This document shows positions 1-13,092 of a DNA stretch of 64,000 nt, piece after piece; within the stretch, counting starts at the first letter, position 1, and the number at the start of each line of letters is the position of its first letter. The notes under the pieces are model-generated. The model had not been told where the DNA came from. It searched no databases and saw only the letters and a program-made list of their open reading frames with translations. The DNA is from a virus: the IMG/VR virus record IMGVR_UViG_3300021964_000016; one strand, given 5' to 3'. A program made the position numbers and the translations under genes.

Positions 1-1740
1 GTGATTGATTGCAGTATCAAGAGGAGTACCGCCAAGTCTGAATACTTCAGCAGGGTTACAACGAAGACGGTTTCCATAGAAGCACAAATCAGGATGAGAA
101 CCAAACTCTTTAACCGCTGTCCTGCTGTGGTTAGAAGCACCAGAAACGAGCAGTGCACCTGCGATTTCAGCAAGGTCAGACTTGGACATTTTCTCGTTGA
201 AGATCTCGATCAGTCGGCAATCTTGGTTGAATTGAAGAGAGTTATCCTCAGTTTCTTCGCCATTTCGCCGACCATTATAGGACAAAGAATCGGAGAAACC
301 ATACACGCGGAAAGGCACGTTGATCTGACGACAGAACATGGTCATCAGTAGAGTCTGCTTGACCACGTCATAGAACACATCGTTCATGGAACCAGACATG
401 TCGAGTAACATCAGGAAACCGTGATTCTTCCCTTCAGGTACAACGGTGACTTTCTTGAAGATATCTTCTGAAGTCTTGTAGTTGTTCATCTTGATGGTGT
501 CGATGACACCAGACTTGGAAATGGTTGCTCGCTGGAACTCAGCAGCAGACTTTCGCATCTCGAATTCTTTGACCATCAGGTTGATTGCTTTCTTGTTCTT
601 GCTGTACCAACCACTGAACAATATATTGCCGAAGTTTTTACCATATACGCTGTAATCTTTTGCACGAGACTCTAATGTGGAAAATCGCCATGAAGAAGTA
701 TCATCTTCCCCAGCGATCAACTCACATCGGATGTCGGCGAGCACAGTCTTGTAGTCTACGACGATATCGCCTGATGCTTTGGGAAGTATCCAATTTCTTA
801 CAGTACCGTCGAAGTTCTGAAACACTTCACGGTCGATGTTGTCGCGCAGGTTCTTGTCTGTCTGAGACTCGATTGCCTGTTCGGTTGAAGTGTCAGATCG
901 CCCACCCTGCTCGCCACCAGTTTCAGTGCCTGTCTTTTCATCCTGCTCGGGGGCAGTTTCTTCGCCAGTGCCAGTGGTGGCAGACTCAGGCGCATCAGCG
1001 TCGTCGTCTTCATCAGACTCTTCGCCCTGCTCTTCCTGCTGGGGTTTGTCGCTGAAGAGTTCGTCAAACTCATCCATCTCTTCGTCGTCGAAGTCATCAA
1101 CACCAGACATGCCAGCACCATCCTCGTCACCTTCTTCATCTTCGTCGGTGTCGGGGTCATTCGCCATTTCCTGTTCTTTCTGCTCCTGCTGCTCTTTGGC
1201 GAACTGGAACAATTCTTCAGTGAGGGCAACAACTTCTTCCCACGTCTCGAGTTTCTCGATGCGCGGCAACCAGTGTTTCTCGTCTGCTGCGAACTGAACG
1301 CCAGCAGACATACCGCACTTGAAGTAGGTGTTGATTCGGTCGATCAGACCCATCTTGTTGATGGTATCAAGGTCAGCACCGAAGAAACCGTCAGCGAACA
1401 GTTTGCGGTATGACTTGATGAAAGAACCACGAAGTCCAGGATACTTGCGCTGAATCAGTTTCTCGATTCGGGCATCCTCGACCACGTTGAGATATGACTT
1501 GAAAGAAGGACCACGATCGCACACAGCGTCATGCCAACCTTCAAGGGGAGTGAAGAGCGCGTGACCGACTTCGTGTCCAATCAGGTGGTCTTCGGTGTGC
1601 TTGGAAACGTCCGCCCACATGGGGAGAGTGAGTACACGATTCTTGACATCGAATGAAGCAGTAGAAACCTTGTCCTGAACCACTGATATATTCTCGGTGG
1701 CAAGCAGTTTTGCTAGGGTAGATTTGTTTGCTTCATTCAT
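1..1740 (-). CDS. Metallopeptidase-like + VWA (CobT-like) protein, 3' end runs off the window
   Basis: Not in the ORF track because there is no stop in the window. Hand translation from ATG 1740 (SD GAGGAG) gives MNEANKSTLAKLLATENISVVQDKVSTASFDVKNRVLTLPMW..., an HExxH motif (LIGHEVGHALFTP), an acidic linker and a MIDAS-like motif (KNHGFLMLLDMSGSM, ~385-430). Typical partner of CobS/MoxR ATPases in marine T4-like phages. Confidence 0.8.
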   Translation of the reverse strand, partial: MNEANKSTLAKLLATENISVVQDKVSTASFDVKNRVLTLPMWADVSKHTEDHLIGHEVGHALFTPLEGWHDAVCDRGPSFKSYLNVVEDARIEKLIQRKYPGLRGSFIKSYRKLFADGFFGADLDTINKMGLIDRINTYFKCGMSAGVQFAADEKHWLPRIEKLETWEEVVALTEELFQFAKEQQEQKEQEMANDPDTDEDEEGDEDGAGMSGVDDFDDEEMDEFDELFSDKPQQEEQGEESDEDDDADAPESATTGTGEETAPEQDEKTGTETGGEQGGRSDTSTEQAIESQTDKNLRDNIDREVFQNFDGTVRNWILPKASGDIVVDYKTVLADIRCELIAGEDDTSSWRFSTLESRAKDYSVYGKNFGNILFSGWYSKNKKAINLMVKEFEMRKSAAEFQRATISKSGVIDTIKMNNYKTSEDIFKKVTVVPEGKNHGFLMLLDMSGSMNDVFYDVVKQTLLMTMFCRQINVPFRVYGFSDSLSYNGRRNGEETEDNSLQFNQDCRLIEIFNEKMSKSDLAEIAGALLVSGASNHSRTAVKEFGSHPDLCFYGNRLRCNPAEVFRLGGTPLDTAINH

Positions 1741-1767
1741 GCTCGTGTCTCCTCAACCAATACAGAT

Positions 1768-1828
1768 ATTATCGCTCAAACCGTGTACAAATACAAGTTT
1801 GAAAAAGTCGTGTAAAAACAACAACTTA
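1768..1828 (-). promoter_or_regulatory. Sigma70-type early promoter with upstream IHF-like box (copy 1)
   Basis: Minus strand: TAAGTTGTTGTTT ... TTGTAT-N17-GATAAT, followed by SD and ATG 1740. Confidence 0.7.
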
Positions 1829-1993
1829 GAGCAACACATCTTCTTCAAGGATTTCGTCGATCTCAGTGTCGTCGAGACCCACCTGCTTGCAGCGGGCAAC
1901 GAACTGGTCGAGGGTGATGTACCCGTCGAGGAGCGACTCTACTTGGTCCAACAGGTACTCGCCTGTCCGACCACGATCATACCACTTTGACAT
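1826..1993 (-). CDS. Small acidic hypothetical early protein (55 aa)
   Basis: Hand-translated MSKWYDRGRTGEYLLDQVESLLDGYITLDQFVARCKQVGLDDTEIDEILEEDVLL*, with SD AAGGAG and its own promoter. Below the ORF-track length cutoff. Confidence 0.75.
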   Translation of the reverse strand: MSKWYDRGRTGEYLLDQVESLLDGYITLDQFVARCKQVGLDDTEIDEILEEDVLL

Positions 1994-2022
1994 AACTATC
2001 TCCTTTATTTCAGTATAGAGAT

Positions 2023-2083
2023 ATTATCGCTGAAAATCAGTACAAAGTAAAGTAATAAAAAGTTCTTAAAAATCAACAACTTA
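2023..2083 (-). promoter_or_regulatory. Sigma70-type early promoter with upstream IHF-like box (copy 2)
   Basis: Minus strand: TAAGTTGTTGATT ... TTTACT-N17-GATAAT. Confidence 0.75.
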
Positions 2084-2618
2084 GAATGAAGTTGACTATC
2101 TCCTGTGTGTCAGAGGGAGTTTCATGACGCATCTCAATGACGCATCCTTTCTCCTCCCCGAACAGGGTCTGCTGGTCGCCGAAACGCTCAAGGATGTTGG
2201 CGCATTTGGTGCGGCAAGTCTGGATGAATTTCTCAGACTGGTCGGATCCTCGCTCTTTATATCGGCGTTCACGTTCAGCGGTCGATACAGTTAGGTGGAT
2301 AATGGTGAGGTTGTCGCCGCATGCTTCGAAGAAACCTGCGTTGTTCAAACGATCACCTTCGCCGACGATGAGTTCGTCGGGTTGAGTGGAGATCCACTCG
2401 ATTGCTTTGGGGGCAACTGCCATGCTCAGACGATCAGTACCACTGAAAGTCTCGCCTTCCTCATACTTGCCAAGGATACGGACAGTACCATTCACGTGAG
2501 TGTCAAGAAGGTCAATAGGTCGATCTTGCTTCCACTCACCACATTGAGTCTTCATAAACTCTTTCATGATGGTGGACTTGCCAGTTCCAGGAATGCCAAT
2601 AAGGTAGATCACTTTCAT
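2073..2618 (-). CDS. P-loop nucleotide/DNA-base kinase (5-hmU DNA kinase-like)
   Basis: N-terminal Walker A GIPGTGKST, GTDRLSM, GEGDRL and a lid-like RERRYKERGS. Lies two genes from the amino-acid:DNA transferase. Confidence 0.75.
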   Translation of the reverse strand: MKVIYLIGIPGTGKSTIMKEFMKTQCGEWKQDRPIDLLDTHVNGTVRILGKYEEGETFSGTDRLSMAVAPKAIEWISTQPDELIVGEGDRLNNAGFFEACGDNLTIIHLTVSTAERERRYKERGSDQSEKFIQTCRTKCANILERFGDQQTLFGEEKGCVIEMRHETPSDTQEIVNFILSC

Positions 2619-2845
2619 TGGTTGGTGAATCTCCCGAATTCCATAATAAAGTTCTGTGCCATGATCTCTTTTTCAAAGTAAAAGGAATGTTGGTATATGT
2701 TGGTAAAAGATTTAAAATGCCAAGACTCTTTGCCCATTAATCTCTTGCACCAATCCTTTCCTTCTCGCTCAAGGTCGCTGTGCAAGGTGACTTCAAATCC
2801 AGGCATCCAACTATTCTTGTAATCGAATATCTGTTGTGGGGTCAT
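2615..2845 (-). CDS. Hypothetical protein (76 aa)
   Basis: Translationally coupled (ATGA overlaps) to both neighbours. Confidence 0.7.
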   Translation of the reverse strand: MTPQQIFDYKNSWMPGFEVTLHSDLEREGKDWCKRLMGKESWHFKSFTNIYQHSFYFEKEIMAQNFIMEFGRFTNQ

Positions 2846-3813
2846 ACAAAAAAATCCTCTAACGCATTCGTTCTGTCCTTTGGGTGAAAGTCTCCCGTAT
2901 CAAGGAACAAATTGAATAGTTCTTTGTCTATTCTGCCCTTTAACCACTCTCGATCAATCGTTTCGTTTCTAGCATCCCACATAGGTGTCCAGTCAATCCC
3001 GTCCCAACCATCTCTCTCAACCTTTCGTATTTCTTCTGATTGTCGATCAAGGTAGTATCCAAGATATCGACCATGTTTTCTACGGAATAGTTTTTTGAAG
3101 GAGCAGAGGCAGGTTTCCATGGCAAAGAAGTCTGCCTTATCAGCAACGTGAGGATATTTTAGTTTGGTTTCTTCTAACATTTCCTTTGCTTCACTTTCCA
3201 GAAATGCTATTTGATCTTTGTCCAACTTTTGATCTACCCAATCTTCTTTTCCTAGTGCGTAACATAGTCCGTTACGATGCGAACGAGAACCGCTATAGTC
3301 GTGCAACCAAAGACTATCAACATCAACTGGAATATCACAGCACTGTTTGAGCGTTTGGATATAAAACCAAGAAGAGTATCTACCAAATTTGTGAAACGCA
3401 TTAACTGTCTCCCAAACAGTATAGAAATCCTTTACGGGGTCTCCGACAAATCCTTGTGTGAGTGCATCGTGTTGTGTTCGTTCTCCAACATATCGCTGGT
3501 ACGAAACGAACTGATCTGCAAGATGTCCTTTATTCCATTTCGTGTCGGTTTGATAACGCAAGCGGCGATAATTGGTGTTATTCCAATCGCGAAGGCGATC
3601 AACGCCAACCAACTCCATGTCGGGGAATTCGTTCCAAACCACATAGGCAGTTGGCCAATAATAAGTTGTTCCATAAATCCAAGTTATCCAGAGTCTTTGT
3701 TCTTTGTTGTATTCAAAACGATCAAAGAAGTATTTAGTCATGTACAATGCAGGGTCGCAGTCTTCTATTTCAAGACTGCGACCGAACCACTCTACAAATT
3801 TTTCTTTATACAC
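2842..3813 (-). CDS. Amino acid:DNA transferase (aGPT-Pplase/AADT family, HhH-glycosylase fold)
   Basis: Motifs KFGRYSSWFYIQTL, GSRSHRNGLC, FAMETCLCSFKK and GRYLGYYLDR resemble the alpha-glutamyl/putrescinyl-thymine pyrophosphorylase family. Kinase adjacent. Confidence 0.75.
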   Translation of the reverse strand: MYKEKFVEWFGRSLEIEDCDPALYMTKYFFDRFEYNKEQRLWITWIYGTTYYWPTAYVVWNEFPDMELVGVDRLRDWNNTNYRRLRYQTDTKWNKGHLADQFVSYQRYVGERTQHDALTQGFVGDPVKDFYTVWETVNAFHKFGRYSSWFYIQTLKQCCDIPVDVDSLWLHDYSGSRSHRNGLCYALGKEDWVDQKLDKDQIAFLESEAKEMLEETKLKYPHVADKADFFAMETCLCSFKKLFRRKHGRYLGYYLDRQSEEIRKVERDGWDGIDWTPMWDARNETIDREWLKGRIDKELFNLFLDTGDFHPKDRTNALEDFFV

Positions 3814-5263
3814 TAATATCTCTCGCGTTGATATAAAATAGTTCTGAACCTTCTCCTTTGGTTAAATAAGGCAGCACATATATATGAATATCTGGGCAAA
3901 CTTGTCTTTCAACCATAAGATCTTTTTTGAAGATTGATAAGATATGATCTCTGTCTTCAGTTATCTTTTCTCTTGGCACGTGACAAACTAAAACGCCAAC
4001 TTCTCCATTTTCTCTGTAGTTTCTTATTGCCGCACTATGGCAGTTACCAATCTGTGCGACACTAAATTCACCTTTACCAACAGATTTCACTTTGTATTTT
4101 CTCTTCAAATCTTTTATGAAAGATTCTCGACTTTGCCCCATGAGTCGGTTCACACTTTGCACACCCACATACTTTGCGTCTAACGCAGAGAGAGTTTTCT
4201 CAGAAACAAGTTGTTTCTCAATTGAACTAAATGCCGACTTAATCTTCGGGTCTGAATAATAGGAATCTCGTAAAATACTTCTCAGTTTTTTCTTTGAAAC
4301 GTTGTCGTTTAGCAAGTTGAGTTTTCTTTCCCAACTAACCTCAACCCCTTGTTTTTTGATCATATCCTCTAAATGGAAATGTAAACTCTGTTTGGCATCA
4401 TGCCCATCATTGACTTTATTTGTTTGGGTGTTATTATTGACTCGGTCTAGGAACTGTCTTACTAATCCGATATCACTATTGAAGTGAATTTTATAGTCCA
4501 TTCTGACAACGTACATAGAGTCTATGCCTATCTTGTGACAAACCTCAGTGCTATGATGTCCGTTACCTATGACCTCTTCTGGCATTGAGGGATAATCGTT
4601 TACCAATAAGACTGGTTTACAGTTTGCCGTTGGATCAATACCTCTAGAACGCTCGTCTTGGAATTTTTCCGTGAGTGTTTTTATATGAGAATCATCGTGA
4701 ACCTGGTTTCTAACTTGAATATTGTATCCATTTTTGATTTTTAAATACAAAGTTGAAACCATCTCTTTTTCTTTATTACTCTCATCATAATAAAAATTTT
4801 CTAATCTGGAAAGTATTTCTTCTGCGCTTTGCTGCTTTCCGACTTTGTAGTTCTCGACATCTTCTACGATTGACGCGACTGTGTCACGAACTTGTTTAGT
4901 GTCATAAGAAGTCAAGTCATACTCGCCCAAATCTAATCCGCTACCGTTTGATTCGTTATAAAAAGTTTCACGTCGTTTTGCATTCAGAGCTTGCAATACC
5001 CTTGTCTCAACTAACAGTGCGTGACCCGTGAGCATAGGAGATCCGTCTGATAATTGGTTCCAGTCTAAAACCCTGTCGAGGTCAGGTGAATCGTTCAAAA
5101 AATTGCTAGTTTTACAAGAACCCACATAAGCAGAATTTATTTCTTTAGTGTCTAACCCAAAATACTTGTGCCCAAACCTTGTTGAGATAGGGTTTGTGTT
5201 ACAGGTCAAATAAACGCCGGAGGGTTTTGACAAAAAGGGATTACTGTTTTGTTGATACGTCAT
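3806..5263 (-). CDS. Seg-type GIY-YIG-like N-terminal domain fused to a ParB/Srx-like domain (putative free-standing endonuclease)
   Basis: GVYLTCN...KYFG...AYVGS...ETRVLQALNA...FYNESNG follows the Seg GIY-YIG pattern, then IQVR...KPVLLV...IGNGHHS (ParB-like). Start reassigned to ATG 5263 (SD AAGGA). Has its own promoter. Confidence 0.55.
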   Translation of the reverse strand: MTYQQNSNPFLSKPSGVYLTCNTNPISTRFGHKYFGLDTKEINSAYVGSCKTSNFLNDSPDLDRVLDWNQLSDGSPMLTGHALLVETRVLQALNAKRRETFYNESNGSGLDLGEYDLTSYDTKQVRDTVASIVEDVENYKVGKQQSAEEILSRLENFYYDESNKEKEMVSTLYLKIKNGYNIQVRNQVHDDSHIKTLTEKFQDERSRGIDPTANCKPVLLVNDYPSMPEEVIGNGHHSTEVCHKIGIDSMYVVRMDYKIHFNSDIGLVRQFLDRVNNNTQTNKVNDGHDAKQSLHFHLEDMIKKQGVEVSWERKLNLLNDNVSKKKLRSILRDSYYSDPKIKSAFSSIEKQLVSEKTLSALDAKYVGVQSVNRLMGQSRESFIKDLKRKYKVKSVGKGEFSVAQIGNCHSAAIRNYRENGEVGVLVCHVPREKITEDRDHILSIFKKDLMVERQVCPDIHIYVLPYLTKGEGSELFYINARDISV

Positions 5264-5302
5264 AATAACTATCCTTACAATTAAGTTACACAATACAGAT
5301 GT

Positions 5303-5363
5303 ATTATGCTATAACCGTTAATCAAAGTAAAATATCGAAAACCCCTGTAGAATCAACAACTTA
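5303..5363 (-). promoter_or_regulatory. Sigma70-type early promoter with upstream IHF-like box (copy 3)
   Basis: Minus strand: TAAGTTGTTGATT ... TTTACT-N17-CATAAT. Confidence 0.7.
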
Positions 5364-5903
5364 CAGAAACCCTTCCAGTCCAAGGGGTTCGTCAGCGAAT
5401 ACTTCAACACATCCTCCCTTGCCTTTTTTGTGTACTGCTTCATAGATCGGTTTATTTTCTAGACTATAATCGCCGTCAAAGAAGGTGTCACCAGTAATCC
5501 GAAACATAGATAATTGACACCCACTCTTTTGCTTCCCGAGCATAGTGAACCCAATTCGCTCGTAGAACTTTACAGCGTCAGGTTCAGCGGATACTCTAAA
5601 ATACAAAGCAGCGTTCTGTCTCGCAAAGCGGAGAGAGTCCTCGCAAAGAATACGACCAACCCCCTTACCTCTATGTTTAGCAAAGGTGTGAAGAAGTTGT
5701 AGGTTTGCTACTTTTGGGGAACGTTTGCTTATTGTTGTAATGATTGCACCTAGAAGAGAATCATCCTCATCCCAAGCACCTATACAAAAACTCCATTGCT
5801 CCTGCATATTTGCCTTGGCGACAAAAGTTTTTGCAAACTTGTCAGCAGGATCATCGGTTATTGCGTTTTTAAATTGTTCAGCAGAACATTCACGCAACTT
5901 CAT
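5361..5903 (-). CDS. GNAT acetyltransferase
   Basis: Acetyl-CoA motif A HRGKGVGRIL and motif B AVKFYERIGF. Confidence 0.9.
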   Translation of the reverse strand: MKLRECSAEQFKNAITDDPADKFAKTFVAKANMQEQWSFCIGAWDEDDSLLGAIITTISKRSPKVANLQLLHTFAKHRGKGVGRILCEDSLRFARQNAALYFRVSAEPDAVKFYERIGFTMLGKQKSGCQLSMFRITGDTFFDGDYSLENKPIYEAVHKKGKGGCVEVFADEPLGLEGFL

Positions 5904-6765
5904 GAAATTCTCTTTTCTTCTCTCCGCGAGACTTATCGTACTTTGTATTCATCCAACCTTTATACTCTCCTGGATTCCAAACGAAAGGAGGGAAGTTGAA
6001 GTTTCTAGAATCTAGGATCTCTTCAACACTAGGTCCGTCATTCAGAGCAGCATCAATAAATGCTTCAGCAAATATAAACTGATCTTCAATCTGTTTGCGA
6101 TCAGTTGTAGACCTGAAGCAACGGAACTCGATAGTACCAGTGTGCTTCATACAATAGGTGTTGATTGCATGGCGGAAAGGGCGACCCATTGAAACACCGT
6201 CCTTACCTGCTGCATGAAGTTTGATGAAGTGATCAAAATCTTCTGCAAGGTTTATGATGTTGTCACACATATAATCTGGCATTAGTCGACCGCCATCATA
6301 CTTCAAGTAAGTCTTTGAACCTTTGAGTATTTTCATCTCTGGTCTCTGACCAAATTGGTAACAAGACTCAACGGTTAGTTCTTGATTCTCTTTTATGTAT
6401 GCAATCAGTCGCTTTAAACCGTCAACATCTTCTTTCAGTCCAGGGACATAAACATGAAGGTGTCCATGATTGACGCAAGAGGCAGATGGTTTGTCTCCAT
6501 TCGCAACAAACAAATCATGTATCTCCATGATTCGATCTACTTGTTGTTGCCAAGTGCTTGTAGGTTTTGTATTGACTTCTCCACCGACAGGTGGTTCTAA
6601 TCCAAGAGGGTCGCAAGCAACAAACCTGTATGGTTCGTGAATGTTCACAATATCCGTTTCTGCATGTTCCCACGATCCAAGGTGCTCTGGAATTTCCAAA
6701 GTTCGGTCAATGTCACCCCATTCAATCTCATATCCATAAGTAAAGTCTTTTGGATTATAATTCAT
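5890..6765 (-). CDS. Putative amidoligase (glutamine synthetase/COOH-NH2 ligase fold)
   Basis: TYGYEIEW, GEVNTKP, HGHLHV and GTIEFRCF motifs. Coupled to a class II GATase. Confidence 0.8.
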   Translation of the reverse strand: MNYNPKDFTYGYEIEWGDIDRTLEIPEHLGSWEHAETDIVNIHEPYRFVACDPLGLEPPVGGEVNTKPTSTWQQQVDRIMEIHDLFVANGDKPSASCVNHGHLHVYVPGLKEDVDGLKRLIAYIKENQELTVESCYQFGQRPEMKILKGSKTYLKYDGGRLMPDYMCDNIINLAEDFDHFIKLHAAGKDGVSMGRPFRHAINTYCMKHTGTIEFRCFRSTTDRKQIEDQFIFAEAFIDAALNDGPSVEEILDSRNFNFPPFVWNPGEYKGWMNTKYDKSRGEKKREFHEVA

Positions 6766-7433
6766 TGCAAGTCCTCCAGGTCAGGGTCGAAGAATCTCCT
6801 ATCTTCGTATAACCCACCATAATTACTGTAAGTGTATTTCACAAGAGGTTCGCATTTTTCTACATGACCTTCGATGCGAGACCTTCTAATTATATCTTCT
6901 GTTGAAGCAAAGATAAGACCGTTATCTCTTGGTGCCATCCAAAGAGGACGTTCATGATTTCTCCAACCATGTAGAACTCCATCTTCTATAGCGACGCATG
7001 CCATACTTCGGTGTTTGTAAACCTCAAGAGGAGTATCACCTGCCTCAATACATCGAAGTATCAATTCAGAATCATTTAAAGTCTCTGTTTCGTATTCCCA
7101 AATGTCTGGGTCTTGAGAGATAACTCCGTTGTGTGCGATAGAAATTTCTTTGCCTTGAAACGGTTGATTGTAACGTAGATCCGAAGTAGAGTATCGAGTA
7201 TGCCCTATACACAATAGAGTATCTCCGTCAACCCAATCTTCAACCGTGGTATGTCTGCCAAGGAAAAGGTAAGAGGAAGTTGGTTCTTTAATTGTATTGA
7301 ATTTACCGTCTTTGAAAAAGGTGACGCCAGTGGCATGTTTCCCGCGAATCATTGATTCTAAGAAAAGGTTACTAACTAATCCGCAATCAGCAGGAGTAAC
7401 ATCAGTGAGGTATACACCAATCACTCCGCACAT
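6762..7433 (-). CDS. Class II glutamine amidotransferase (Ntn hydrolase)
   Basis: N-terminal MCGVIG (catalytic Cys2), RGKHATG, IGHTRYST, AHNGVI, NDSE. Confidence 0.9.
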   Translation of the reverse strand: MCGVIGVYLTDVTPADCGLVSNLFLESMIRGKHATGVTFFKDGKFNTIKEPTSSYLFLGRHTTVEDWVDGDTLLCIGHTRYSTSDLRYNQPFQGKEISIAHNGVISQDPDIWEYETETLNDSELILRCIEAGDTPLEVYKHRSMACVAIEDGVLHGWRNHERPLWMAPRDNGLIFASTEDIIRRSRIEGHVEKCEPLVKYTYSNYGGLYEDRRFFDPDLEDLQ

Positions 7434-8833
7434 TAAAAGAAATCCTCTAATGAACCAGCAACTTCAAATGCTTTAGGATGATACTGACGAACCATCGACT
7501 CGCCGCCTTCAACAGTCAACCAATCATACCACTCTTGTTCGTCCCACATGGAAGGCGATACACCATTCCAATATGGACGCCACAGTGGGTGTTCTTCATT
7601 CTTGCGGCGAGCGTCAACATAGGCACGACGCAGGTGCTCATACTCCCAACTACCCAACTTCGCCATATCCTCACGGAAATAAAATACGAGAGACATGCGC
7701 ATCAGGTCATCTTCACCAGTATCAGGTGCTTCGATTGGAGTGTTACCGTGGATAACTCGCATGTTGTCGACGAGCAACAGGTCACCAGGTCGGACATTAA
7801 TAGCAGCACGAACTTCAGGGCAAACGAGGTATCCGCCTTTCCAGTTTTTCTTGCCATCACTGATTACCGTCAAGTTAGAATAACCTTCGTTCAAAGAACC
7901 AGCATCGCGATGGCATGCCATACGAGCATTGCGATCTTTGGTGGTAGTATTGACAGTGATTGTGGTGAAAGTAGTATCTTCGCCAATCAGAAACTTTGGG
8001 TCAACTTTATCCGCCCATTTCTTTTGACGAGAATGACGAACAGGGAGTAATTCTGCGAAAGTTTTTTCTAGTTTCCTTGCGAACGGATAGCACTTTTCAA
8101 ACGTTTCTCTATGGTGATCAGTATACGCTGTAGCGCGACCATAAGGTATGCGAGGATAACGACCATAGAACCCAGCGATACCACTCCAAATAGCAGTGGC
8201 ATAAGAAGTATCTGAAATAAAATCTGTTTTAATTTTTTTAGCATATGCTTTTGCCTCTTCAAGAGGCATGGACTTCAATTTCTCCTCTAGTTTAGGGAAG
8301 AAATTTTTGTAGTCTCCGAACTCTGGTTCCACTTTGGTGCGTAACCAAACACCACCGCGAATCTCATCCTTATTTATATTTGCAAATTCAACGAGTGGAT
8401 CTGAACCATCGATACTCGGTGGTTGTCCTTTTGCATACCAATCAAGTACATTAGATTGGTAAATAGTCACCCAATCTCTCCCGCCCTGAGTTTCTTCTCT
8501 TGGACCTGCTGCTAGACCACGGTTATTTGATTCTACTGCTGCACCATACAAACCCTCAAAAGCACCGTCTTGTTCTTCTTGAGTGAAAACATTCTTACGA
8601 AACTTAAAAGCAATAAGATCTTCATCATGTGTTTCTTCAGTTATATCGCTAGAAGGAAGATAAAAGTCTGTATCCTCTTCTATTAACAAGTCGTAAGAAG
8701 TTTCGTCCGCATAAGTACCAAGAACAGCATCATCCGATTCAAGAAACTGTGCGACGTAAACATCTTGACCTTGATCGCCTTTGTATTTCTTCCATTGGCG
8801 ACCTGAAATATTAATCAATTCCATGAAGAACAC
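7433..8833 (-). CDS. TET/JBP-family 2OG-Fe(II) dioxygenase
   Basis: HxD (ACHRDAG), distal His (IHGNTPI) and RMSLVFYFRE match the phage TET/JBP signature. The start may be ATG 8824. Confidence 0.8.
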   Translation of the reverse strand: MFFMELINISGRQWKKYKGDQGQDVYVAQFLESDDAVLGTYADETSYDLLIEEDTDFYLPSSDITEETHDEDLIAFKFRKNVFTQEEQDGAFEGLYGAAVESNNRGLAAGPREETQGGRDWVTIYQSNVLDWYAKGQPPSIDGSDPLVEFANINKDEIRGGVWLRTKVEPEFGDYKNFFPKLEEKLKSMPLEEAKAYAKKIKTDFISDTSYATAIWSGIAGFYGRYPRIPYGRATAYTDHHRETFEKCYPFARKLEKTFAELLPVRHSRQKKWADKVDPKFLIGEDTTFTTITVNTTTKDRNARMACHRDAGSLNEGYSNLTVISDGKKNWKGGYLVCPEVRAAINVRPGDLLLVDNMRVIHGNTPIEAPDTGEDDLMRMSLVFYFREDMAKLGSWEYEHLRRAYVDARRKNEEHPLWRPYWNGVSPSMWDEQEWYDWLTVEGGESMVRQYHPKAFEVAGSLEDFF

Positions 8834-8993
8834 CGTTCACATATATCATACTATCTACCATCGTGTATTTGTTCTTGTTAGTTACCAATGAATAACCGTT
8901 AAAATCAAGAACCTTTTCTTTTCCTTTATCTTGTATTTCTTTCTTCAACTCTACAAGAGAGTTATACCTTTTTCTTTTTAACTTGTGCACCAA
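8811..8993 (-). CDS. Small basic hypothetical protein
   Basis: 60-aa ORF filling the gap in the operon. Confidence 0.6.
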   Translation of the reverse strand: MVHKLKRKRYNSLVELKKEIQDKGKEKVLDFNGYSLVTNKNKYTMVDSMIYVNGVLHGID

Positions 8994-9000
8994 TTATAAC

Positions 9001-9510
9001 CTATTTTCTTTTTTTAGTCAAGTATTCGTTCCCGTGTGAGGCATGTGGACCATTGGCATCAACATAGTGGAGGAAAGACTGATATACAAAGTCAGCAGGG
9101 TTCTCTTCTCTCCAATGCTCAACATCACAACCACGATAAATCACTGCGTCTCCTTGTTTCATCAAAACAGAACCTCCCTCCCAGAAAAACTCCCAAGGAA
9201 CTTGCACGTTTTTTAGGTTTATGGTAACTGAAACTTCGCAAGAAGGTCTATCGGCATGACGGCGAAGGATATTATCTTTTTTATATATCCTACAATAATC
9301 ATATGTGGGTACCAATTCTATGCCAGTTATTTCAGACATCTTATCACAACAGTCTTCGAGTAAGTCCCAGTGTAACCCATACCATGCCCAAGAATTAGGA
9401 ACTTGAGTATCGTCTGTCCTAGAAATCACCTTATTATCGTCCATACGAGAAGCGTGCTTCTCAGCGACTTCTTTCTCTATAAAATTCGGAACATAAGTTG
9501 CTAATTTCAT
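9001..9510 (-). CDS. Small 2OG-Fe(II) oxygenase
   Basis: RHADRPSCEVSVTINL, GDAVIYRG, HWRE, FLHYVD. A family common in marine T4-like phages. Confidence 0.8.
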   Translation of the reverse strand: MKLATYVPNFIEKEVAEKHASRMDDNKVISRTDDTQVPNSWAWYGLHWDLLEDCCDKMSEITGIELVPTYDYCRIYKKDNILRRHADRPSCEVSVTINLKNVQVPWEFFWEGGSVLMKQGDAVIYRGCDVEHWREENPADFVYQSFLHYVDANGPHASHGNEYLTKKRK

Positions 9511-11225
9511 TTCTTGATCTTAGAGAAGTTTTTATCTTTGACGAATTCTATTTTAGCGTCAAACTTGCCATCTAGAATATCACCCTTATGAGAAATAATA
9601 AAGACGTTTGTATCATCTCCAAGGGTATGTATTATCTTCATTAGGTTTTCAATACCTGCTTCGTCAAGTGAAGAGTCGAAGGTCTCGTCCAGTATCAAAA
9701 GATTTGTGCTGATCGAGTTCTTCATCTTGGCAACTTGACGCCAAGTAAAGAGAAGTGCTAAGTCTATTCTCTGTTTCTCGCCTTCAGAGAAAGAATCGTA
9801 AGAAAATGAATCACGGTGGCGAGAACGTATTGTTTCTGAAAAAGATTCGTCTAGGTCAAAGTGAACATAGAAGTCAAGAATAGACAAATACTGGTTGACC
9901 AATTTGTTGATCACTGGAAGGTATTGTTTAATGATCTTGGTTTTGATACCAGTATCTTTTAGCATCTCTGATATGACAGTATTGTATGCTGCCTGATCAT
10001 TCTGTTTATTTTTCGTTTGCATCAATTCATGATATTCTTTCACCAGAACATCGTAGTCGTCGTTTGCTTTTGCAAGATCTGACTTCTCGTCACTAAGATC
10101 TTTTATGTCCCATTCAAGTTCTTCAATATCATATTTTATCCTTTCGATGTTTTCATCGTTATCAAACATCTTTCGACTAACTTCAACCAGTTCTTGTGAC
10201 TTTTCTACCCAATGATCTAATTCTTTTGTTGCTTCTGCTTGTTTCTCTGTGATTTCAGTAAGAGATGATTGAAACTCTGACGCTGAGACTTTTGCTTGCT
10301 CGAGTTTACTCTTCTTGAGTTGTTCGTCGATGTCTTGCTCGCAGGTCGGGCACGTTTCGTTTTTCTCATAGAATTTGGTCTCTTTTACCAATGCTTTTAT
10401 TTTAGTGAGGATTTCAGTATTAGAATTCTGTAATTCTGAAACCAAAGAGTATGCATTTTTGCGCTTTTCAGCAGTATTATCAGAAAACTCTTGAAGATAC
10501 TTTCTTTTCTCGTTATTGTCCTTTTGAAGATCGTCAATCAAATCCTGCTTCTGCTTGATCTGTTCTTCAATCTTTTTCTTTTCATCATGTTTTATTTTAG
10601 ATATATCACGGATGTACTTTTTTTGTGCTTCCGTTTTGGTTTCGTTTATTTCAATGTCGTGTAACGTTTGATTTATTTTCTCTCGTAACGTAGCATTCTT
10701 TTCTTTTAGAAGAGAATTCATTTTAGAAAAAACGTTAATGTCTAGCAAATCTTCGATAACTTCTCTTCGATTGAATGCAGACAATTGCATGAAGGGTATG
10801 AACGAAGAAGAACCAAGAACAACAACTTGATGGAAAGTTTTATGATTTAGTTTAAGTATGTTCTGTTCAAGAATCTTCTGATACTCTTTGTTGTGTGAGT
10901 TTTGGTTCATAAGAACCCCATCAGCATAGATCTCAAACTTTACTGGTTTTAATCCTCTAACAACTTTATATTTTTTATTACCAATAGAGAAATCTACTTC
11001 AACTCTCATTGCCTTTTGGTTTACAGAATTAACCAGTTGCCCTTTGTTTATTCCTCTATGCGGTTTTCCAAATAATGCGTATGACACGGCGTCTAGCATT
11101 GTAGACTTACCAGAACCATTCTGCCCCACAATCAACGTGTGGTTAGCATTATTCAATTGTATTTCTGTCCAATTGTCGCCAGTAGAAAGAAAGTTTTTGT
11201 AACGTATAGATTTAAAAATTATCAA
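9507..11225 (-). CDS. gp46: Recombination endonuclease ATPase subunit (Rad50/SbcC-like)
   Basis: GQNGSGKST, coiled coils with CPTC zinc hook, FSEGEKQRID, LILDE. Confidence 0.97.
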   Translation of the reverse strand: MIIFKSIRYKNFLSTGDNWTEIQLNNANHTLIVGQNGSGKSTMLDAVSYALFGKPHRGINKGQLVNSVNQKAMRVEVDFSIGNKKYKVVRGLKPVKFEIYADGVLMNQNSHNKEYQKILEQNILKLNHKTFHQVVVLGSSSFIPFMQLSAFNRREVIEDLLDINVFSKMNSLLKEKNATLREKINQTLHDIEINETKTEAQKKYIRDISKIKHDEKKKIEEQIKQKQDLIDDLQKDNNEKRKYLQEFSDNTAEKRKNAYSLVSELQNSNTEILTKIKALVKETKFYEKNETCPTCEQDIDEQLKKSKLEQAKVSASEFQSSLTEITEKQAEATKELDHWVEKSQELVEVSRKMFDNDENIERIKYDIEELEWDIKDLSDEKSDLAKANDDYDVLVKEYHELMQTKNKQNDQAAYNTVISEMLKDTGIKTKIIKQYLPVINKLVNQYLSILDFYVHFDLDESFSETIRSRHRDSFSYDSFSEGEKQRIDLALLFTWRQVAKMKNSISTNLLILDETFDSSLDEAGIENLMKIIHTLGDDTNVFIISHKGDILDGKFDAKIEFVKDKNFSKIKK

Positions 11226-11446
11226 AGTGGAAATCTCTCTCTCAATTCTTCGAATCCGCCAATATACTCACCGTCAACATAAACCTGAGGAATTTTTAAA
11301 TTCGGTTTATATTTTTCGTCTTTCTGAAACTTTGTTTTGCTTAGATCTATAAAGAAAGTCTTAAATCCAAGTGCCTCAAAATGCAGTAGGCACCTTAAAG
11401 TGTGTCCACACCATGCATACCCAACAACATGGATCACAAATCTCAC
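11222..11446 (-). CDS. Glutaredoxin-like protein
   Basis: WCGHT active-site position and IPQVYVDGEYIGGFEEL. Confidence 0.8.
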   Translation of the reverse strand: MRFVIHVVGYAWCGHTLRCLLHFEALGFKTFFIDLSKTKFQKDEKYKPNLKIPQVYVDGEYIGGFEELRERFPL

Positions 11447-12504
11447 GCAATCTCCATTGATTGTGCTTCTGTCATTAAGTCCGAAACCTCTTTTTTAATC
11501 CGTTCTTTATCTAAAAGAGTTTCAACGTTATCGATGTAAGATCCAAGTAAGACACTAGTATCTTCTACATCCAAACCTTCATCAGAAACGTTTTCTCCCA
11601 GAAACTCTGAGAAGTCTTCCTGTACTTTTAGATCATAAATTTCTCTTTGTTGTATACGATCCAAAAATCTATCAAATGTGAAAGGGTCGTTTTTATTAAT
11701 AACAACGACTTTAACAAATTTTTGATCGAGGTGATCAATTTCAAGTTTGTTATAGTCAGCAACTTCATCATCGTAATAAATTTTTTCATGAAGAGTTAAT
11801 GGGTTTTGTACAGGGATCAGTTCTCTTGTCTCTGTATCGAGTATGTGGAAATACTTTGGGTCGTTTGCATCGTTCCAAAAGAATTCCATCTGGGAACCAA
11901 GATAGTGAATATTGTCTTGACTAGACTTACAATGATAGTGTCCTGAAAGCACCAACTCAAATCTACGAAGGTTGTCAGCAGACATACCATGAGTACAAGG
12001 AACTCCGCGAATCATATCAAACCCGTTTAATTCAAAGTGTCCTCCGATAACATCTGCTTTACAGTTTACAAGGAAATCATTTATCTCTTTTTCATTATCT
12101 TGACAAATCCAAGGAACTAGACCAACCTTCAACCCATCATAATCAAGGACGCTTGGGTCCATCACAATATTAACTTCGTTCATGTAATGACCCAACAACT
12201 CTTTTAAAGAATTTAGGTCATTCGTATTTTTGTAATAAGTGTCATGATTACCTGGGATTATATCCATAGTAATTCCATCAGAACGAAGTCTCTCAAGAAA
12301 AACCTTCCGATTGCTATTCAGTGCTTTAAAATTGATGAAACGACGATGTTCATAGTAATCACCAAGATGGATGATATGCTTGATGTGGTTTTCTTTTAGA
12401 TAAGGGAAGAACACTTCAGTATAGAAGCGTTCTTGATAATCAATAAAGATGTCTGACGAATTACGAATACCACAATGAGTATCGTTTAAAATTGCTATGC
12501 GCAT
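11443..12504 (-). CDS. gp47: Recombination endonuclease nuclease subunit (Mre11/SbcD-like)
   Basis: DTH, HLGD, GNHD and SGHYH phosphoesterase motifs. Confidence 0.97.
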   Translation of the reverse strand: MRIAILNDTHCGIRNSSDIFIDYQERFYTEVFFPYLKENHIKHIIHLGDYYEHRRFINFKALNSNRKVFLERLRSDGITMDIIPGNHDTYYKNTNDLNSLKELLGHYMNEVNIVMDPSVLDYDGLKVGLVPWICQDNEKEINDFLVNCKADVIGGHFELNGFDMIRGVPCTHGMSADNLRRFELVLSGHYHCKSSQDNIHYLGSQMEFFWNDANDPKYFHILDTETRELIPVQNPLTLHEKIYYDDEVADYNKLEIDHLDQKFVKVVVINKNDPFTFDRFLDRIQQREIYDLKVQEDFSEFLGENVSDEGLDVEDTSVLLGSYIDNVETLLDKERIKKEVSDLMTEAQSMEIA

Positions 12505-13092
12505 TTATTCCTCGAGAAAATCTGAAAGGTCTGAATCTATAGAAACTTTTCTTTTGTTCGAAAGGGTCTTTTTATATTGCTTTATTTTTTCGTCTTTTTC
12601 TTTTACGTCGTCAATCCTTCTACGAAGATTGTCAACAAAGGATTGAACTGCTTTTGCAACTTGAGGATCTTCATCTGGGTCGACCATAAATTCCTCTATT
12701 GCGGATTCTGATAAGAACTTCAATTTAACATCCTGCTGCTTCTTTTCTTTCTGAATACGGCGAAGGAAAGCATACCAAGAGATCTGAGTGAAATATCCAA
12801 ACGCATTTGGTTTACCTTTTCGAGTCGCCGCATCGATATCGTAGTTCTTTACAGCACGAAGGCAGTTCTCTACAGCATCCATTACCATCTCTTCACGATA
12901 GGTGTAGCGAACAAAGTTAGACTTGTGAGAAAGACCCTCTGCGATCTTAAGGAAACACTCTGCAACATAGTTCGGCATAACTGGTTCAGGGTTGTTTTTC
13001 GTTTCTGCTTCCCGTACAGATTTTACATAGTCAACCACTGCTTGCGAGAAATCAGCATTATTAACATAATGCGGGCGTTCATTAGGTTTCAT
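12505..13092 (-). CDS. gp55: Late transcription sigma factor
   Basis: HYVNNADF, NFVRYTYREEMVMDAVENC, NAFGYFTQISWYAFLRRIQKEKKQ. Upstream of gp47. Confidence 0.96.
   Translation of the reverse strand: MKPNERPHYVNNADFSQAVVDYVKSVREAETKNNPEPVMPNYVAECFLKIAEGLSHKSNFVRYTYREEMVMDAVENCLRAVKNYDIDAATRKGKPNAFGYFTQISWYAFLRRIQKEKKQQDVKLKFLSESAIEEFMVDPDEDPQVAKAVQSFVDNLRRRIDDVKEKDEKIKQYKKTLSNKRKVSIDSDLSDFLEE

Follow-up and report, generated by a model that had tools for sequence, protein, structure and literature searches.

A predicted post-replicative thymine hypermodification operon of a T4-like phage, with candidate clamp-binding tails and an exchanged ParB-fold gene

The closest described counterparts of the operon analysed here, which occupies positions 2073-8833 on the minus strand of a 64,000-nucleotide stretch of the virus record IMGVR_UViG_3300021964_000016 (the whole stretch is called the window below), come from two studies of phage DNA modification. 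Lee et al. (Nucleic Acids Research 2022; PMC8989533, Fig. 2, sequences 22-25) presented metavirome contigs that lack a deoxyuridine monophosphate (dUMP) hydroxymethylase and carry a TET_JBP gene beside a kinase and an amino acid:DNA transferase (AADT), together with amidoligase and glutaminotransferase genes, and inferred that the TET enzyme replaces the hydroxymethylase by making 5-hydroxymethyluracil (5hmU) in situ for the kinase and the AADT. O'Toole et al. (PNAS 2026; PMC13229309; bioRxiv 10.1101/2025.08.14.668559) reported that phage 5mYOX enzymes of clades C1 and C2 make 5hmU on DNA, and that one subclass, clade C1, needs a cognate ParB and is 'consistently linked' with glutamine amidotransferases (GATases), as well as with P-loop kinases and with AADTs. 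We assign a probability of roughly 80% to the reading that the operon of the window encodes a post-replicative thymine hypermodification pathway of a T4-like phage, driven by an early promoter and proceeding by the steps proposed below. A preliminary reading of the letters and ORF translations, made ahead of this comparative work (the sequence-only reading), had put the pathway forward as new; these two papers show that its class is already published, and what the present analysis adds is the comparative link between GATase and AADT, the clamp-type tails and the swapped ParB-fold cassette. The same reading had noted that no characterised base is made by this combination of enzymes, and this stands: the product of the GATase, amidoligase and GNAT combination is not identified in either paper, nor in a 2026 paper on another thymine modification.

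The window derives from an uncultured T4-like myovirus, which also encodes gp46/gp47, a gp55-like factor, UvsW, UvsY, gp23, gp22, gp21, and tail and baseplate proteins. Its operon comprises eight co-oriented open reading frames (ORFs; Table 1), which run from the 5' end in the order TET/JBP dioxygenase, GATase, amidoligase, GNAT, a 485-residue protein, AADT, a 76-residue ORF and P-loop kinase. Overlaps of 1, 4, 14, 8, 4 and 4 nucleotides, in gene order, join the genes to one another, and the sole spacer, of 97 nucleotides, stands in front of the gene for the 485-residue protein. All eight ORFs lie where the sequence-only reading had placed them, and its view of the six enzyme genes as a single DNA hypermodification operon, headed by a TET/JBP dioxygenase, is borne out by the overlaps, by Pfam matches, and by the enzyme families, folds and intact catalytic motifs described below.

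Judged against the curated gathering cut-off of each Pfam family, five of the six enzyme assignments stand above threshold. The dioxygenase matches Tet_JBP (PF12851) at 56.5 bits (cut-off 34.9; E = 2.5e-15), the GATase matches GATase_6 at 32.8 bits (cut-off 27; 7.9e-8) as well as PHROG 4736, and the GNAT protein matches Acetyltransf_10 at 50.4 bits (cut-off 23.6; 2.9e-13) and Acetyltransf_1 (4.7e-10). The AADT scores 75.7 bits against the Pfam family ADDT (PF18724; cut-off 26.2; 5.9e-21) and 2e-52 against PHROG 3271, and the kinase scores 63.6 bits against Ploopntkinase3 (PF18751; cut-off 27; 2.3e-17). The exception, which counts against the reading of the operon given here, is the amidoligase: its match to Amidoligase_2 (PF12224) reaches 20.1 bits against a cut-off of 22, with only the C-terminal 40 residues aligned, and a profile of the protein found no match among PDB sequences. 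Its alignment of ten sequences is highly conserved, with E13, E15, E63, H100/102/104, R195, R198, E213 and R215 invariant; the ESM Atlas groups it, at a score of 0.98, with viral 'amidoligase' clusters, 30-51% of whose members have PF12224, and a homologue fused to a GATase bears PF12224.

The predicted structure of the dioxygenase agrees with its assigned identity. An AlphaFold2 model with a predicted local distance difference test score (pLDDT) of 80 has human TET2, NgTET1, CcTet and CMD1 as its best Foldseek matches (E of about 1e-8), and VIA comparison aligns residues 12-401 with TET proteins (TET2, Z 19.5, root-mean-square deviation 3.9 over 266 residues; NgTET1, Z 15.4), the AlkB family scoring Z 12-13. 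Because this alignment begins at residue 12, what looks like an N-terminal 'extension' is part of the TET fold, into which a variable region is inserted. H305, D307, H359 and R376, which make up the HxD...H motif and the 2-oxoglutarate-binding arginine, are invariant among 28 homologues. An assignment to the TauD/clavaminate-synthase type, prompted by PDB sequence matches to the distal-His segment, was ruled out by Foldseek and VIA.

Catalytic features of the remaining enzymes are similarly preserved. Of 47 GATase homologues, 45 retain the N-terminal M-C-(G/A), which all four fusion proteins have as well, and the GNAT translation contains an R-G-K-G-V-G motif of the acetyl-CoA-loop type. Within the AADT motif 'METCLC', none of 13 homologues departs from E233 or C237, which probably correspond to the essential Glu/Cys pair of M6 gp51 and ViI gp247, in which replacement of the conserved cysteine or the neighbouring glutamate by alanine abolishes activity (PMC8989533). 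In relatives, it is invariably the kinase gene that closes the cluster. With their catalytic motifs intact and conserved in relatives, the enzymes look active.

Taken together, these assignments suggest a pathway of four steps. In the first, the TET/JBP dioxygenase would hydroxylate thymine in phage DNA to 5hmU, as we infer from its family membership, its fold, its catalytic residues and the published activity of related phage enzymes; the adjacent GIY-YIG-like/ParB-fold protein, the 485-residue product, probably helps or targets it. The P-loop kinase, by homology to characterised 5-HMUDKs, would phosphorylate 5hmU, and the AADT would use its Glu/Cys pair to put a nitrogen nucleophile in place of the phosphate. 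The comparisons favour ammonia as this nucleophile; the GATase would release it from glutamine, and 5-aminomethyl-deoxyuridine (5-aminomethyl-dU) would result. The fourth step is speculative: the amidoligase might use ATP to join a carboxylate, for example an amino acid, to the amine of 5-aminomethyl-dU, and the GNAT protein might acetylate the amine still free. In relatives that have no amidoligase, GNAT would acetylate 5-aminomethyl-dU directly and so converge on the 5-acetylaminomethyl-dU of Pseudomonas phage PaMx11. Enzymes docked on the sliding clamp, as discussed below, would act on newly copied DNA, and the pathway as a whole likely serves to shield phage DNA from host nucleases.

On dozens of independent viral contigs the gene set is found again in conserved order, which is far beyond chance and confirms the co-occurrence in related genomes that the sequence-only reading had made a condition of its proposal. 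Among loci with at least 6.5 kb of sequence downstream of the TET gene, we counted 13 full clusters (11 of them with a ParB-like gene), 4 short ones of the form TET-GATase-GNAT2-AADT-(146 aa)-kinase, and 15 in which TET stands alone. Every cluster with this AADT clade has a GATase, whether an amidoligase is present or not, and about 20 related clusters combine GATase, GNAT, AADT and kinase without an amidoligase. An 8,228-bp contig (L091; ENA ERZ27248471, positions 250-4680) encodes a 588-residue GATase-AADT fusion, followed by an HMUDK_HMUD1 kinase and a 369-residue ThyA-like protein; neither amidoligase nor GNAT was detected on it. The ThyA-like protein is probably a dUMP hydroxymethylase, in which case the contig would represent a pre-replicative 5hmU route to the same chemistry that dispenses with TET, amidoligase and GNAT. 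That the GATase accompanies the AADT where there is no amidoligase, and that the two occur as one fused protein, suggests that the GATase works with the AADT.

This suggested partnership bears on the order of steps. The sequence-only reading had paired the GATase with the amidoligase. Spelled out in chemical terms, its order would be this: the AADT would add a free amino acid, such as serine or glycine, to phosphorylated 5hmU, the amidoligase would amidate its carboxylate with ammonia from the GATase, much as asparagine synthetase does, and GNAT would acetylate the amine. Such a scheme draws on the substrates of characterised AADTs, which are glycine, serine or putrescine (PMC8989533), on the adjacency of the GATase and amidoligase genes with their 4-nucleotide overlap, and on a GATase-amidoligase fusion followed by GNAT (P0153 in L092). 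Two singleton fusions are in fact known, one with the GATase N-terminal to the amidoligase and one with the GATase N-terminal to GNAT; both fit amidation and to that extent tell against ammonia transfer, unless they were created in assembly where genes overlap, the former joining neighbours that normally do so. Amidation would leave the GATase without a partner in the roughly 20 clusters that lack an amidoligase, and it sits poorly with the GATase-AADT fusion on a contig where neither amidoligase nor GNAT was found. We therefore regard amidation as a possible but not the best-fitting scheme, held by us at clearly less than even odds, and ammonia transfer to give 5-aminomethyl-dU as the more likely course.

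A second comparative observation concerns the C-termini of the operon's products. Across the window's 55 minus-strand ORFs, 20,202 residues in total, there are six occurrences of the motif L[EDS][DEG][FL][FLQ], five of them at the extreme C-termini of the AADT, GNAT, GATase, TET and gp55-like proteins (binomial P of about 8e-9, for a motif that was defined after seeing the data, which must be held against the figure). Nearly all of about 40 distinct tails among TET homologues retain [ST]LE[DE]FF, and nearly all of about 24 among AADT homologues retain GLExF. Similar peptides close the DNA polymerases of relatives (ATLEDFFG, ATLDSFFA, NTLEDFFND, NTLESFFDD and STLEEWFT), and in Caulobacter phage Cr30 the polymerase ends in DLSSLFD and a glycosyltransferase-like (TAGT-like) protein next to the AADT ends in DLSKLF. 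The gp55-like factor, whose synteny with gp47 and gp46 is that seen in phage DLP6, serves as a reference for the tail within the window. In T4, the C-terminal sliding-clamp epitopes of gp43, gp55 and gp33 are interchangeable (PMC2988020). Since TET, AADT, GNAT and GATase share their tail with the DNA polymerase and the gp55 of the lineage, they are probably docked on the gp45 sliding clamp, a predicted binding that is comparatively well supported; the absence of the tail from the amidoligase, the kinase and the ParB-like protein counts against this reading.

The 485-residue protein resisted identification as a single sequence: it matches nothing in Pfam, PHROGs or the PDB, and a word-indexed search of 5.8 billion proteins returned only itself. 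Most of the related full clusters encode a protein of similar size between GNAT and AADT, and a profile built from ten such proteins matched 1531 cluster representatives among 1.8 billion proteins. A 68-member profile in turn matched Noc (1.7e-5), SbnI (8.7e-5) and ParB (6e-3) in the PDB, with a conserved, invariant Q-x-R (Q183 and R185) aligned to ParB box I; six of the 68 members match Pfam ParB_N, two match GIY-YIG and two match SegE_GIY-YIG. The AlphaFold2 model (pLDDT 86.8) finds Noc, ParB, Srx and SerK as its best Foldseek matches, and VIA places it nearest the N-terminal region of pNOB8 ParB (ParB-N, Z 9.0), PadC (7.8) and KorB (7.5). From these profile, model, Foldseek and VIA data we derive four domains: a GIY-YIG-like domain at about residues 14-105, a ParB/sulfiredoxin fold at about 150-280, a helical domain at 284-363 and a C-terminal alpha/beta domain at 368-485. 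The first has the topology beta-beta-alpha-beta-alpha, with Y18, Y34, G36 and E86 conserved, N103 nearly so, and no conserved arginine. GIY-YIG nucleases carry a catalytic arginine about ten residues after the Y-x-G motif, besides a catalytic glutamate and asparagine.

Of the 13 full clusters long enough to judge, 11 have a member of this family between GNAT and AADT, and every independently sampled member whose context is informative lies there too, although the TETs are only 45-95% identical. In equivalent clusters, experiments show that the dioxygenases need ParB homologues as activators (PMC13229309). The gene is thus poorly described as the 'apparent mobile insert' of the sequence-only reading; its product is probably a partner or activator of the dioxygenase rather than a random insertion. 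Several observations pull the other way. The ParB box II sequence 'GERR' is replaced by DGNHT in the family, or by GNGHHS in the window protein; the family is absent from all short clusters; and the same TET family occurs in about 40 loci that have no ParB neighbour. Because that TET family presumably works without a ParB-like neighbour in the short and TET-only loci, dependence on ParB is uncertain here and, across the TET family in general, doubtful.

Comparison with a near-identical phage (L005) reveals how this gene varies. By blastn, positions 1-3799 of the window are 98% identical to that phage and positions 5352-12000 are 93% identical, and nothing is matched across 3800-5351, in place of which L005 has 1430 bp encoding a 433-residue member of the same family that is less than 20% identical. 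Matching flanks around an unmatched interval indicate a clean allele swap of the gene between the two phages. Their dioxygenases differ at 22 residues, of which 21 fall within residues 7-200, a span that takes in the variable region, and one in the C-terminal half that bears the Fe(II) and 2-oxoglutarate ligands. This single phage pair, which has other mosaic patches nearby, is suggestive of co-variation between the variable region of TET and the ParB-fold allele. One such patch, with 80% identity, falls in the 5' portion of the TET gene, at about 8420-8720; another, at 10800-11700, has 69-86% nucleotide identity and spans the 3' end of gp47 together with the 5' portion of gp46, in surroundings that are 98-100% identical.

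In a rival account the same gene is a selfish mobile insert that takes no part in the modification chemistry, namely a Seg-like GIY-YIG homing endonuclease. The GIY-YIG-like N-terminal domain and the Pfam GIY-YIG and SegE_GIY-YIG matches of some family members fit this account, as do the gene's own spacer and promoter-like site and the clean replacement of its allele between near-identical phages; moreover, the slot is empty in two related loci (L032 and L076) and filled by other genes in two more (L042 and L045), and family members lie away from the cluster in a further two (L041 and L054). Against it stand the constant slot in 11 of 13 full clusters, held with TETs only 45-95% identical, and the arginine: at the expected position of the GIY-YIG arginine this family has an invariant tyrosine. 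Together with the activator role of ParB homologues in equivalent clusters, this makes a homing endonuclease an unlikely identity, and we retain that of a probable dioxygenase partner. The other genes in the slot encode an unrelated 494-residue protein with no Pfam match (L045, 3658-5142) and a 184-residue protein with a weak match to T5orf172 of the GIY-YIG clan (L042, 13389-13943).

The tails and the allele swap can be combined into a more ambitious picture, in which clamp-tethered enzymes would form an assembly line on new DNA and the GIY-YIG-like/ParB-fold protein would be an exchangeable cassette for specificity or activation. We offer this as a conjecture with low odds. If it were true, swapping the cassette together with the dioxygenase patch would alter which thymines are modified, a phage counterpart of the shuffling of specificity subunits in restriction-modification systems.

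Thymine as the substrate is suggested by what the genomes contain. The search for thymidylate synthase and C5-methyltransferase genes that the sequence-only reading had suggested, carried out on the window and on relatives, found no C5-methyltransferase, ThyA or ThyX gene in the 64 kb of the window. No C5-methyltransferase (PF00145) was found in five relatives with the same TET family, among them the complete genomes of C48C1 and DLP6, and no ThyA homologue or ThyA-type hydroxymethylase in seven of eight relatives' records (C48C1, DLP6 and five partial ones), the eighth, Cr30, having one; ThyX was found in two relatives. Since neither a C5-methyltransferase nor a ThyA-type hydroxymethylase was found, oxidation of thymine on DNA is the likely entry point, as had been proposed from the letters, and thymine in DNA is the likely substrate of the dioxygenase. 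Two considerations temper this: the preference for thymine over 5-methylcytosine (5mC) is inferred solely from genomic context, and the window is part of a phage genome, so that a ThyA-like hydroxymethylase or a methyltransferase may lie outside it. That the dioxygenase instead oxidises 5mC, as characterised clade A/B phage TETs do (PMC8256090), and that the cluster hypermodifies cytosine, is very improbable even though the TET fold alone cannot tell the two specificities apart, given that searches of the window and of the five relatives, two of them complete, turned up no C5-methyltransferase, that the downstream 5-HMUDK-type kinase and AADT are thymidine-pathway families, and that phage 5mYOXs with no neighbouring C5-methyltransferase make 5hmU (PMC13229309).

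In cultured T4-like phages, where GenBank labels this TET family 'SNF2 DNA repair protein', the dioxygenase keeps different company. Sugar-pathway genes follow or precede it: UDP-galactopyranose mutase in C48C1 (L001, 10419-12451), a TET-associated glycosyltransferase in S-CBWM1 (L095, 5207-7921) and a nucleotidyl transferase in DLP6 (L002, 7235-8926). It thus looks like an interchangeable first module to which various decorations can be coupled. Cr30 (L003, 12021-17888) has TET, an AADT (PF18724, 1.3e-52), the TAGT-like protein of 308 residues, a kinase and a canonical-looking ThyA; an uncharacterised modification of thymine may be present in the DNA of this phage.

The features of the locus are collected in Table 1. 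For the TET gene, the ATG at 8824 is probably the start rather than the upstream GTG, and the gene for the 485-residue protein starts at the ATG at 5263, behind an AAGGA ribosome-binding site, rather than at 5293, in agreement with public gene calls. Promoter and terminator scans gave sites in the region not above shuffled expectation, so that the operon promoters listed are read from consensus match alone. At least 21 public contigs, from JGI, ENA and Logan assemblies, carry the operon genes with identical sequence, and none of 50,697 phage records matched the region by megablast. The 76-residue ORF, with no match in Pfam or PHROGs, is present only in the closest relatives, most related clusters having no gene there; on one public contig (L082) a 63-residue gene is called in its place.

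Table 1. Genes and sites of the predicted modification operon and of its surroundings in the window
Feature	Position	Strand	Remarks
TET/JBP-family 5-methylpyrimidine dioxygenase	7433..8824	-	463 aa; alternative GTG start 8833; ends SLEDFF
Stand-alone class-II (Ntn) GATase domain	6762..7433	-	223 aa; starts Met-Cys-Gly; ends LEDLQ
Amidoligase (glutamine-synthetase-like COOH-NH2 ligase), predicted	5890..6765	-	291 aa
GNAT N-acetyltransferase	5361..5903	-	180 aa; ends GLEGFL
GIY-YIG-like/ParB-fold protein	3806..5263	-	485 aa
AADT (aGPT-Pplase)	2842..3813	-	323 aa; ends ALEDFFV
76-aa ORF, lineage-specific	2615..2845	-	no Pfam or PHROG match
P-loop 5-hmdU DNA kinase-type protein	2073..2618	-	181 aa; Walker A GIPGTGKST
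Sigma-70-like promoter candidate upstream of operon	8993..9021	-	TTGACT-17-TATAAT, 11/12 consensus match
Weak promoter-like site in 97-nt spacer	5303..5331	-	TTTACT-17-CATAAT, 9/12 consensus match
Cassette-swap segment	3800..5351		485-aa gene and its upstream spacer exactly
gp55-like late sigma factor	12505..13092	-	ends DLSDFLEE; 41% identity (E 6e-36) to DLP6 late sigma factor

Two neighbouring features lie outside the operon. Directly upstream of its promoter, a 169-residue ORF (9001-9510, minus strand) matches PHROG 2954 (1.8e-43; label 'ferrochelatase') and no Pfam family; its translation has an H-x-D...H pattern suggestive of a small 2-oxoglutarate-Fe(II) oxygenase, and it adjoins TET only in the closest relatives (L004, L005, L009 and L014). 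Downstream of the kinase, both in the window (1-1740, minus strand) and in a related contig (L077, 13524-17095), come a 772-residue acidic protein and an AAA_5 (MoxR/CobS-like) ATPase, a pair typical of marine T4-like phages, and then gp45, whose gene lies a few kb outside the start of the window (L077, 17142-17816).

Hypermodified thymidines guard phage DNA against restriction enzymes and other host nucleases, and they are a source of new DNA chemistry for biotechnology. Environmental T4-like phages commonly have clusters that join a thymine dioxygenase to GATase, amidoligase and GNAT; the present locus, compact and intact, is one that turns up in many metagenomes. The comparisons offer three hypotheses for reconstitution, namely that ammonia from glutamine is the nucleophile of the AADT, that the amidoligase is an optional extension and that four of the enzymes ride the sliding clamp, and the clean swap of the ParB-fold allele amounts to a natural experiment in dioxygenase activation or targeting.

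Set beside the described systems, the locus resembles the clade C1 neighbourhoods of O'Toole et al. (PMC13229309), with which it shares a TET/JBP dioxygenase that has no adjacent C5-methyltransferase, the combination of GATase, P-loop kinase and AADT, a ParB-fold protein within the cluster and a dioxygenase C-terminal extension beyond the catalytic core. It departs from them in that its ParB-fold protein has an extra GIY-YIG-like N-terminal domain and lacks the box II arginines, and in that many relatives of its TET have no ParB at all; neither the amidoligase nor clamp tails are mentioned in that paper. The contigs of Lee et al. have the same gene families and led to the same inference as here, but without an analysis of product, step order or partners, whereas the comparative data presented here suggest that the GATase works with the AADT. 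For the clamp tails the point of reference is the set of T4/RB69 epitopes on gp43, gp55 and gp33 (PMC2988020): the likeness lies in a short acidic-hydrophobic peptide at the extreme C-terminus, which here is found on four modification enzymes as well. The known clients of the T4/RB69 clamp are replication and late-transcription proteins, and base-modifying clients are not described in the literature reviewed.

In its chemistry, the proposed pathway shares with the trypanosome JBP1/2 system the post-replicative oxidation of thymine in DNA to 5hmU, which is then decorated; base J is glucosylated, whereas the decoration here would proceed through phosphorylation and nitrogen transfer, and the proteins are only distantly related. 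Pseudomonas phage PaMx11, which makes 5-acetylaminomethyl-dU with the kinase gp49, the glycine:DNA transferase gp46, the flavin adenine dinucleotide (FAD) lyase gp47 and the acetyltransferase gp48, is alike in deploying a kinase, an AADT and an acetyltransferase on DNA and in the N-acetylation of 5-aminomethyl-dU, the intermediate proposed here. In that phage, however, 5hmU is supplied before replication and the amine is obtained by way of glycine and a flavin lyase; the present operon has no FAD enzyme, TET would supply 5hmU, the GATase is proposed to provide ammonia and the amidoligase would add a further step.

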